Assembly: GCF_033153115.1 (NCBI RefSeq)
Contig: NW_026889778.1
Span: 37,386,001 to 37,450,000 of the forward strand
DNA: 64,000 nucleotides
From: Saccostrea echinata
Lineage: Eukaryota
Direction: 5' to 3'
Within the stretch, counting starts at the first letter, position 1; the number at the start of each line of letters is the position of its first letter. This document shows, piece by piece, positions 19,855 to 22,900 of this stretch. The translations under genes and the position numbers were made by a program. The notes below the pieces were generated by a model. The model searched no databases. It was given only the letters and a program-made list of their open reading frames with translations, and had not been told where the DNA came from.

Positions 19855-19985
19855 TCACCTCACGTAAGGCTTTCGTTTCCTTTTTGCTTTTTCTTTTCGT
19901 CTCTGTGCTCTCTCACGTTGCTTTTGTTGCCTCCTTCGTTTTCGTCTAGCAAATCTAGTTATATCAGCTAGTAACGTTTTCTTTC
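19855..19985 (-). CDS. WIF1: WIF1 exon 10 (Arg/Lys-rich terminal exon)
   Basis: ttttttacag acceptor, phase 1; [43 protein letters not shown]. Confidence 0.75.
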
Positions 19986-22900
19986 CTGTAAAAAATATTA
20001 CTTTTATCATTAATTCTATTCAAAATCCTTCCTTCACATGTAATATTTTAGCCCATCTGAGCTGAAAGCTCAACTGAGCTTTTCTGATCGCATTTTGTCC
20101 GTCCTCCCTCTGTCTGTCTGTCTGCAAGCTCTTCATATTTTGAACTTCTTCCCAAGAAGAAACAAATATAAATTCCTTTTTCCCAAGGATGCTTTGTGGC
20201 AAGTTTGTTTGAAATTGGACCAGTGGATCTTGAAAAGAAGTCCAAAATGTGAAGAGCTTACAGACAGCTACACAGACGGACAGATGTAGGACGGACAAAA
20301 TGCAAGCAGAAAAGCTCAATTGGCTCCTGGACTAGAGTCACACATTGGGCAATCAAGTTTTACATAGGATTGTAAAGGAAAAATCTTTAAAAATCTTCTA
20401 AAGAACAGGAAAGCCATAATTTGTCATATGCAGATGAAAGCATCCTATGGTATGTAAATTCAAGTTTGTTCAAATCATGACCCCCGGGGTTACCCTAACA
20501 AAAAATACTATAGTAAACTATAGTTAACTATAGTTTACTATAGTTAACTATAGTACCAAAGTAAAAACTTTGGAACTTTGATTTACTATAGTTAAAACTT
20601 TGGAACTTTGATTTACTATAGTTAAAACTTTGGAACTTTGAGTTAAAACTTTGGAACTTTGATTTACTATAGTTAAAACTTTGGAACTTTGATTTACTAT
20701 AGTGAAAACTTTGGAACTTTGATTTACTATAGTGAAAACTTTGGAACTTTGATTTACTATAGTGAAAACTTTGGAACTTTGATCTCCTGTAGTGAAAACG
20801 TTGGAACTTTGATTTACTATAGTAAAAACTTTGGAACTTTGATTTACTATAGTAAAAACTTTGAAACTTTGATTTACTATAGTAAAAACTTTGAAACTTT
20901 GATTAAGTACGATAAATCCTGTGGAATTATGTTTTTGATTCCCATTCTTTACATTTTATGATATTTCAAGTTTAAGATTCATAAAAGCTTTAGGGAACAT
21001 TTTTAAAACCCGACCCCTCCCCTAAAAGAATAATGTACAAGATATGAATTTTAATGTAAAGGTTGTCGCTGGCGCCGATAAATAGGCAATATTTATTTCA
21101 ATGCATTTAATTTTAATGTTATGCAGATGTAACGTAAGTCTTATTTATGGAGAAAAAAATAATATATTATTGTGTCATTTAGAATCAAAATATCTGCTTC
21201 ATCAACTTCAGTCAACATGTATTTTTTTTTAATTTATAAATGTAAATATTGCATTTGAATTAACTACTTTGTATATTTAAATAAAGATGTACAACAAAAA
21301 CCAGCCCCAACCAACCCCATATCCACCCCTCCCCTAAAACGGCTAAATAATAAAAAAATAATAAAAATACATAAGTTGTTAAGCTAATGAAAAACCTTTG
21401 AAACTTTTATTAAGTATAGGAAAAACTTTGAAACTTTAATTAACTATAGTAAAAACTTTCGAACTTTGACTTACTATAGTGAAAACTTTGGAACTTTGAT
21501 TTACTATAGTGAAAACTTTGGAACTTTGATTTACTATAGTAAAAACTTTGGAACTTTGATTTACTCTAGTGAAAACTTTGGAACTTTGATTTACTATAGT
21601 AAAAACTTTGGAACTTTAATTTACTACATAGTTAACTATAGTAAACTATAGTTAACTATAGTTTACTATAGCATTTTTTTGTTAGGGTATAGTTCGGGGC
21701 CACAATGAGCAATCAATGTTTGATACATATTTAGGCTAGGATTCTGTAGGAAAAAACTTTAAAATATTCTTCTAAAGAACAGGAAAGTCATGATTAGTCA
21801 TATTTATATGGAGGCATCCTCAGGTTGCTTAGAATCAAGCTTGTTCAAATCATGAAAGCCGGGGGTTGAGTGGGGTGGGGCCACAATATGTGATCAAAGT
21901 TTTAGATTGGAATAGAAAGGGTAAAAAATCTGCTGTTGAAGAACAACAGAGCCATAGTTACTCAGATGAGTGTTGTGGCCCATGGCCCTCTTGTTATTTT
22001 TGTGTTTCATAAAGGGATTGAATCATTATGTATTTTGAAAGTGTCAGATCTTGAATCTGATATTAAACATAATTGAAAAAAAAATTCTTATTATCTGATT
22101 CAATTATTTAATTTTACATACGTTTTAATTTTAGCCTCGTCCTCTTTTTCTTATTATTTTTAGGATTCCTTGGTTTTTTATTATCGAGATTCTTCTTCTT
22201 TCCCTTCTTCTTTTTCTTCTTCTTCTTCTTTCTTTTCTTTTTGTTTTTCTTCTTTTTCCCATATCCAGTTTTAATGCCCTTTCGTCTCCTACTACGTCCT
22301 GTTATAGCAATTAGAATATCTTTCATATCAGCAAAACTTGTTTTTGGAGTACTAAAGCTCAATTTTATGACCCTGTTAAAAGTATAAAGTTATTGACAAT
22401 GTCTTAAGAGAGACAACGATTTTCAGCATCAGTGCAAATTGAGCGATCTTATCTTTTACAAAGTGCAAAGTCCTTTGACTTTTAGATTTATCCTGGTTTT
22501 ATCTTTTTCGAGCTTTGCATTTTTTCACGATGTTGGCTAATTAAACATTGTTGATTTATTTTCCAGCAAAACTGATGAGAAAATGAATGCAATGGTACTC
22601 ACTTTGCTGACACAAGTTACCCTGGTAACCAACCGGACACCGGCATTTATTTACGCCTATACAGGTCCCACCATTTTGGCAGTTAGGTTTACACTTGCCT
22701 GTAAAGAGATTTACAGTTTACACTTGCCTGTAAAGAGGTTTACAAGGTTTACATTTGCCTGTACATGTGTAAATAAGATAAACAATGTTTGCATTTGCCT
22801 AAAAAGGAGTACATGCAACAAAGTGGAGGGTTGTTTGCCTGTATGAGATCTTAAAAATTTTACCATTCATATTTACTGTTCGTTTCATAAATGTTATTCT

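Follow-up and report, generated by a model that had tools for sequence, protein, structure and literature searches.

The WIF1 ortholog of the oyster Saccostrea echinata ends in a spliced, strongly basic tail of 102 residues. We interpret this tail, at a probability of about one half, as a cleavable matrix-retention module, in which tethering is combined with functional cleavage at the tail root; the part of this reading that makes the tail a polyanion tether is probable. The tail would hold secreted WIF1 on heparan sulfate or other polyanions, near its source, and a furin-type cut at the root would free a more diffusible core of WIF domain and EGF repeats, so that cleavage would decide whether WIF1 acts at short or at long range. 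From sequence comparison and modeling, we infer glycosaminoglycan binding by the tail, root cleavage and this control of range. How far WIF1/Shifted proteins travel decides whether Wnt and Hedgehog signals are sharpened, blocked or extended, and this range is currently thought to be set by contacts between EGF repeats and glypicans. If the interpretation is right, it would add a protease switch on morphogen range of a kind not so far described for the family. The WIF1 protein is already annotated, and the principle of a retention tail is already known from other proteins, semaphorins and SOD3 among them, which limits the surprise.

The WIF1 gene and its spliced tail

The window, a 64-kb stretch of animal DNA (32% GC), was read in six frames and searched with Pfam, which located exons of a WIF domain and of EGF repeats within 41584-19855, on the minus strand. 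Joined across GT-AG introns, ten exons make a reading frame of 1239 nt that encodes 412 aa free of internal stops (Table 1), and this product has 0 mismatches over 412 residues to XP_061186686.1 (P0014), the annotated Saccostrea echinata WIF1-like isoform X2. The WIF domain (PF02019) spans aa 39-176 at 88.5 bits (cut-off 25) and is followed by four EGF repeats and the tail; the protein has no transmembrane or kinase domain and is not RYK. Human WIF1 is the best PDB match (2YGQ, E = 9.5e-92). Together with the WIF domain and the EGFs, this match upholds the assignment to WIF1/Shifted made in the original prediction. A quick tree of 38 WIF+EGF I rows, with RYK rows left out, followed mollusc taxonomy and grouped the oysters with SH-aLRT support of 99. 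By eye, the N-terminus has a basic-hydrophobic-small pattern, and residues 2-30 are helical in the structure model; from these features we infer a signal peptide and secretion.

Vertebrate WIF1 has the same layout of WIF domain and EGFs, and in mouse as in the oyster one 96-nt exon encodes each of EGF II-IV, but vertebrates carry the canonical five EGFs and the oyster four. Because EGF number varies within WIF1/Shifted and EGF V is listed as absent from Crassostrea Wif1 (PMC7565927), four EGFs are a variant that does not exclude membership. The annotated isoform X1 uses a donor that adds 23489-23512 and inserts GKDGDSNQ between EGF II and III; C. virginica has a similar insert, and the donor was absent from the joints listed from contigs. 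A second WIF locus (G000:C1:47493840-47508000; L001, L002), on another contig than the WIF1 window (G000:C29), contains WIF exons, a hydrophobic segment and tyrosine-kinase exons and is therefore RYK-like. The WIF1 gene itself was missed by the WIF family search of its genome, in which 8 candidates were scored, so no copy number follows from it. PMC3361287 was rejected as a source on the WIF1 gene, its subject being Gigasin-2, an EGF-only protein.

Table 1. Exons and sequence features of the WIF1 gene, in window positions
Feature	Position	Strand	Remarks
Exon 1	41434..41584	-	Start codon, signal-peptide-like aa 1-31, start of WIF domain; second in-frame ATG at 41545
Exon 2	38788..38927	-	WIF domain
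Exon 3	29349..29451	-	WIF domain
Exon 4	24342..24485	-	End of WIF domain; contig-supported
Exon 5	24037..24141	-	EGF I; contig-supported
Exon 6	23513..23608	-	EGF II; annotated alternative donor 23489, +8 aa (isoform X1)
Exon 7	23045..23140	-	EGF III; contig-supported
Exon 8	22603..22698	-	EGF IV, the last EGF; no EGF V
Exon 9	22122..22298	-	177 nt; Lys-rich first half of tail, aa 311-370, K9 run; predicted disordered
Furin-type R-S-R-R, aa 312-315, at tail root	22285..22296	-	Followed by R-K; sequence motif, predicted site
Exon 10, coding part	19855..19985	-	131 nt, ends TGA; predicted helix aa 374-406 (19974-19876) with LLADITRF at its start, then KPYVR and stop
Likely 3' UTR	18930..19854	-	Contigs extend to 18949, adjoining AATAAA at 18930

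The tail comprises the last two exons. Its composition (38 Lys and 23 Arg, 61/102, with 4 acidic residues and no Cys; longest K run 9, longest K/R run 13) agrees with the counts originally given, and its computed charge is about +57; the mature core without the tail has a computed charge of about -4. Exons 9 and 10 have AG/GT ends and keep phase 1 after the EGF IV exon (22698-22603). The junction 22603>22298 was present in contigs of all four runs examined (2 samples, 2 studies), with 22297-22602 skipped, and in all four the loose contig ends at 22121 correspond to window 19955-19984, the start of exon 10. Single contigs, one each from runs X1 (1507 nt) and X2 (1446 nt), pass from exon 4 to exon 10 and on into the 3' UTR. 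RNA confirmation had been proposed for the 22603>22298 and 22122>19985 junctions, and both occur in spliced contigs from two studies. No run is recorded as RNA and the type is a guess, yet the contigs skip each of the five introns of the stretch at GT-AG ends. The spliced contigs rule out mis-splicing or an annotation artefact. The limit of the 3' UTR is approximate, since contigs cannot prove an RNA end and the X1 evidence there includes two abutting contigs, not joined. Hexamers (AATAAA/ATTAAA) that might give alternative 3' ends lie in introns 8 and 9 and were used by no contig in the runs examined, in which assembly drops rare forms.

Exon 10 is under purifying selection. Among 8 substitutions listed for it (runs X1, X2 and X6, mostly from a run under another organism code; the table has 8 further rows), seven were synonymous and the eighth was K>R (P about 2e-4 against neutrality). 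Exon 9 contains an AAG-type repeat (22190-22260), and run lengths differ among oysters. These last points would suit an artefact or a neutral low-complexity expansion, a reading that retains next to no probability against splicing in two studies, a maintained frame, selection in exon 10 and homologous tails across molluscs. As an account of the tail's existence this reading is refuted, and drift may at most affect how long exactly the K run is. Pfam gave nothing meaningful on the tail exons, an ESM Atlas search with the tail returned no usable match (a blank that proves nothing), and the exon-10 peptide matched only itself in its own genome, with 1 candidate scored.

Basic tails and a root motif across molluscs

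In 52 sequences we measured the tail, taken as everything C-terminal to the last cysteine of the EGF repeats. The 18 molluscan rows cover oysters, scallops, mussels, Solemya, heterodont clams, Patella, Physella and a chiton, four of them placed by the tree; the Patella tail was taken by hand after the last Cys. Isoform duplicates, partial or frameshifted-looking records, a tail-less partial Potamilus and the short-tailed mussel-cluster P0020 were left out, and the representative search was crowded by multi-EGF proteins, about 30 of its 150 rows being WIF1-like; a profile search contributed nothing beyond naming Lingula. P0020, which belongs to the cluster of P0231 in the mussel group, ends 17 aa after EGF IV and is tail-less, through either intron read-through or a real isoform.

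Every molluscan tail was long and basic (18/18; 73-141 aa, net +25 to +57). Tails of other lophotrochozoan type measured 22-69 aa and +8 to +18 (n=8), those of arthropod type, most of them assigned by resemblance, 5-71 aa and +1 to +15 (n=20), and the single hemichordate tail 29 aa and +10. Shark and ray tails (n=3) had 42 aa and +3/+4, against 102-104 aa and +57 in oysters, and the unplaced P0191 and P0212 had 65 aa and +40. Full-length WIF1 from cephalopods, echinoderms and bony vertebrates was not identified in the sequence sets compared. Arthropod Shifted, which promotes Hedgehog spread in flies, belongs to the same family; many of its members have short basic C-termini ending in KK[FY]V or R[IV]W[VLM], and its tails differ from those of molluscan WIF1 in size, charge and the absence of R-x-[KR]-R-S. 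On these alignments a basic C-terminus looks common among invertebrates, enlarged in molluscs and slight in the sampled vertebrates. The suggestion that the tail is lineage-specific therefore holds at the level of the phylum and fails at the level of the oyster: a tail confined to oysters is ruled out by the 18 molluscan sequences, and other invertebrates commonly have basic tails that are short. Mere replacement of EGF V fails as a full account, as the chiton combines a tail of 73 aa with five EGFs.

The tails fall into different structural types. In an AlphaFold2 model of the oyster protein, built on a 14-sequence alignment, aa 315-372 are disordered (pLDDT < 50) and aa 374-406 form a confident helix (block pLDDT 89). 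The start of this helix is an amphipathic LL-x-[ED]-[IV]-x-x-F common to oysters, scallops, mussels and the chiton. Heterodont clam tails are of another basic type, with 8 aligned Cys in 6/6 sequences (P0229, P0028, P0032, P0033, P0027, P0227), mostly spaced C-x10-C, and were modeled as long helices at low confidence (mean pLDDT 51.6). The heterodont tail is possibly a disulfide-stapled helical hairpin; as the model is poor, we claim no disulfide pairing. Two gastropods have a third type. The extreme C-terminus is aromatic-aliphatic(-R/W) in 28/55 WIF1/Shifted proteins and 4/113 other EGF proteins, counts uncorrected for kinship among sequences; it reads YVR/FVR in bivalves (window 19858-19866), FV/YV/WV in the arthropod type and YIW in sawfish.

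A furin-type motif lies at the root of these tails. R-x-[KR]-R starts 3-12 residues after the last EGF Cys, within the first 18 tail residues, in 17/18 molluscan sequences; it is present in bivalves and snails and absent from the chiton despite its long tail. The sites, with an arrow at the predicted bond, read ETERPRR↓S in mussels, DVDRPRR↓S in Solemya, DTERPRR↓S in Physella, DVRPRR↓R in Patella, VRPRR↓K in Dreissena, KRPKR↓L/V in venerids, RDKR↓S in scallops and RSRR↓RK in oysters. The motif is kept across three tail types that otherwise align poorly. With one sequence per lineage, an early R-x-[KR]-R occurred in 8/9 lineages (2.6 expected from shuffles of each tail), RP[KR]R in 6/9 (0.11 expected) and R-x-[KR]-R-S in 4/9 (0.13 expected), although the motif was defined with the alignment already in view and the lineages share ancestry, so that shuffle P values overstate the case. 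Outside molluscs, R-x-[KR]-R-S occurred in 0/32 tails, and the plain early motif in 2/8 other lophotrochozoan and 3/20 arthropod-type short tails (5/28). P0191 and P0212, whose position among lophotrochozoans the tree did not resolve, have two EGFs only and the site DADRTRR↓S ahead of their tails. This site could extend the root motif beyond bivalves and snails.

The oyster site is the least typical of these, with basic residues after the bond. Furin prefers Ser after the bond, and basic residues there make a poorer substrate than RPRR↓S. Of the convertase motifs named in the original prediction, RSRR (312-315) and RRKR/RKRR (383-387) fit R-x-[KR]-R and KRKR does not. The consensus itself is given as RX(K/R)R in PMC11295036, which adds that such motifs may themselves serve glycan binding.

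Proposed retention, cleavage and other possible roles of the tail

A basic C-terminal segment holds PDGF-B and long VEGF-A near their source, and its removal extends their range. Both differ from WIF1 in being ligands, not ligand-binding modulators, and their motifs are much shorter; VEGF also uses alternative splicing, none of which was seen for the oyster tail. Two features of such retention tails were found here, a basic C-terminal segment on a secretory-type protein (61/102 K/R) and a convertase consensus between core and tail. Sema2b and the class 3 semaphorins have a glycosaminoglycan-binding basic C-terminal tail made of a disordered stretch and one basic helix, and several class 3 members also carry furin sites (PMC11295036). 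The modeled oyster tail, a disordered basic stretch followed by a basic helix, resembles that of Sema2b. According to the same source, removal of the Sema2b tail lowers affinity for heparin 232-fold and for heparan sulfate 128-fold, and the tail is needed in vivo. However, semaphorins are unrelated to WIF1, the Sema2b tail has 66 aa with 10 basic residues, and the furin sites lie at the helix and not at the tail root (PMC11295036). In SOD3, furin removes a C-terminal heparin-binding region and so decides between matrix-bound and free forms (PMC12774472), but SOD3 is an enzyme with a short basic region and no homology to WIF1.

In flies and vertebrates, WIF1 is reported to bind proteoglycans through its EGF repeats (PMC8699845, PMC3285576), whereas in the oyster the tail is the predicted site. 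Net charges of the oyster EGFs are -1, -2, 0 and +3, compared with +6 for sawfish EGF IV and up to +7 in Limulus. As the oyster core is slightly acidic (about -4) and its EGFs are near neutral, polyanion binding, for which vertebrate WIF1 uses its EGFs, would fall mostly to the tail. In such a protein, whose EGFs are near neutral and whose charge lies in a separate tail behind a conserved cut site, ligand binding and tethering would be separable and each testable alone. On a broader view, which is possible but which we hold tentatively, bivalves and snails would have rewired WIF1: EGF V was dropped and proteoglycan binding moved from the EGFs to a detachable polycation under predicted furin control. 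One gene would then yield a tethered and a free Wnt/Hedgehog modulator, and the switch would have been kept since the bivalve-gastropod split and rebuilt in three tail folds.

Published work on the Pacific oyster bears on these proposals. WIF-1 was cloned with primers whose translations are MCKAKLQ and RKPFVR (PMC11358575), so the GFP construct is full length and includes the tail, and the recombinant construct ends with it. In HEK293T cells, WIF1-GFP, in which GFP follows the tail, overlapped with a membrane dye, and Wnt1- and Wnt2b-GFP showed the same pattern (PMC11358575). The membrane signal fits retention and speaks against a nuclear role; it fits uncut protein as well as a cut tail, and a signal anchor could also explain it. 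WIF-1 lowered TOPflash activity with CgWnt1 and CgWnt2b-a, the constructs all bearing the tail, and is implicated in mantle pigmentation, the tail going unmentioned in the excerpts of the paper at hand (PMC11358575). A juvenile-specific 'Wnt inhibitory factor 1', which may not be the same gene, is tabulated in PMC4527670. The mouse WIF1 C-terminus is termed hydrophilic in PMC7565927, the available portions of which mention no basic tail, although alignments in its supplement may show one. No description of a basic or cleavable WIF1 tail was found in the open-access literature, to which the search was confined, subscription papers lying outside it.

Among the roles originally offered for the tail, a tether combined with convertase cleavage is best supported, both binding and cleavage being predicted. 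The main competing account, which we judge somewhat unlikely, is that the tail binds polyanions permanently, the root staying uncut in vivo and RPRR forming a binding surface or linker. It would account for the degenerate oyster site, for a chiton tail without the motif and for GFP that remains at the membrane when fused after the tail, and glycan-bound Sema3A is reported to stay uncleaved (PMC11295036). Yet RPRR↓S follows acidic residues, stands apart from the main basic run and is conserved among mussels, Solemya and a pulmonate snail, and selection for glycan binding alone would not be expected to produce Pro at P3 and Ser at P1'. A different role, and an unlikely one, is that of a pro-region or protein-binding module whose helix binds a partner or the acidic core, with cleavage switching activity instead of range. 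The amphipathic motif conserved in pteriomorph bivalves and the chiton, the eight Cys and predicted helices of heterodont tails and the frequent aromatic-aliphatic C-terminus are in its favour, but tail-bearing constructs are already active against Wnt (PMC11358575). Moreover, what the three molluscan tail types share is charge, with little sequence in common, and this suits electrostatics more than a single partner.

The nuclear or nucleolar and cell-penetrating options of the original prediction fare worse. A tail serving as the nuclear or nucleolar signal of an intracellular form is highly improbable: K/R runs do resemble such signals, but the protein has a signal-peptide-like N-terminus and a disulfide-type EGF core, the conserved Cys of heterodont tails are even in number, and the full-length GFP fusion is reported at the membrane (PMC11358575). 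Slightly less improbable, though still very doubtful, is that the released tail itself carries the activity, as a cationic peptide that kills microbes or penetrates cells. A cleavage motif exists, and about 97 aa with a charge above +50 follow the root site; against this, the peptide has few hydrophobic residues and no family or look-alike in Pfam or the ESM Atlas, and neither sequence comparisons nor the open-access literature yielded evidence, or a paper, for a defence role. Cell penetration is further disfavoured by the signal-peptide-like segment, the conserved heterodont Cys and the membrane location of WIF1-GFP.

Other features of the window

The last intron of the WIF1 gene holds two arrays of one 30-bp unit, at 20507-20904 (11.8 copies) and 21391-21671 (7.9 copies), each beside an array of the 10-bp ACTATAGTTA. 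Two further segments, 20046-20480 and 21951-22000, match many unrelated contigs and are thus a dispersed repeat. Repeated fragments also occur at 60882-61355, for which Pfam found no family, with similar pieces near 13612-14732, 50581-51496 and 58164-58778; these resemble a reverse-transcriptase-type mobile element. Upstream, at 53773-57002 on the minus strand, lies a gene with a signal-like, coiled-coil-like first exon and exons for a fibrinogen C-terminal domain.
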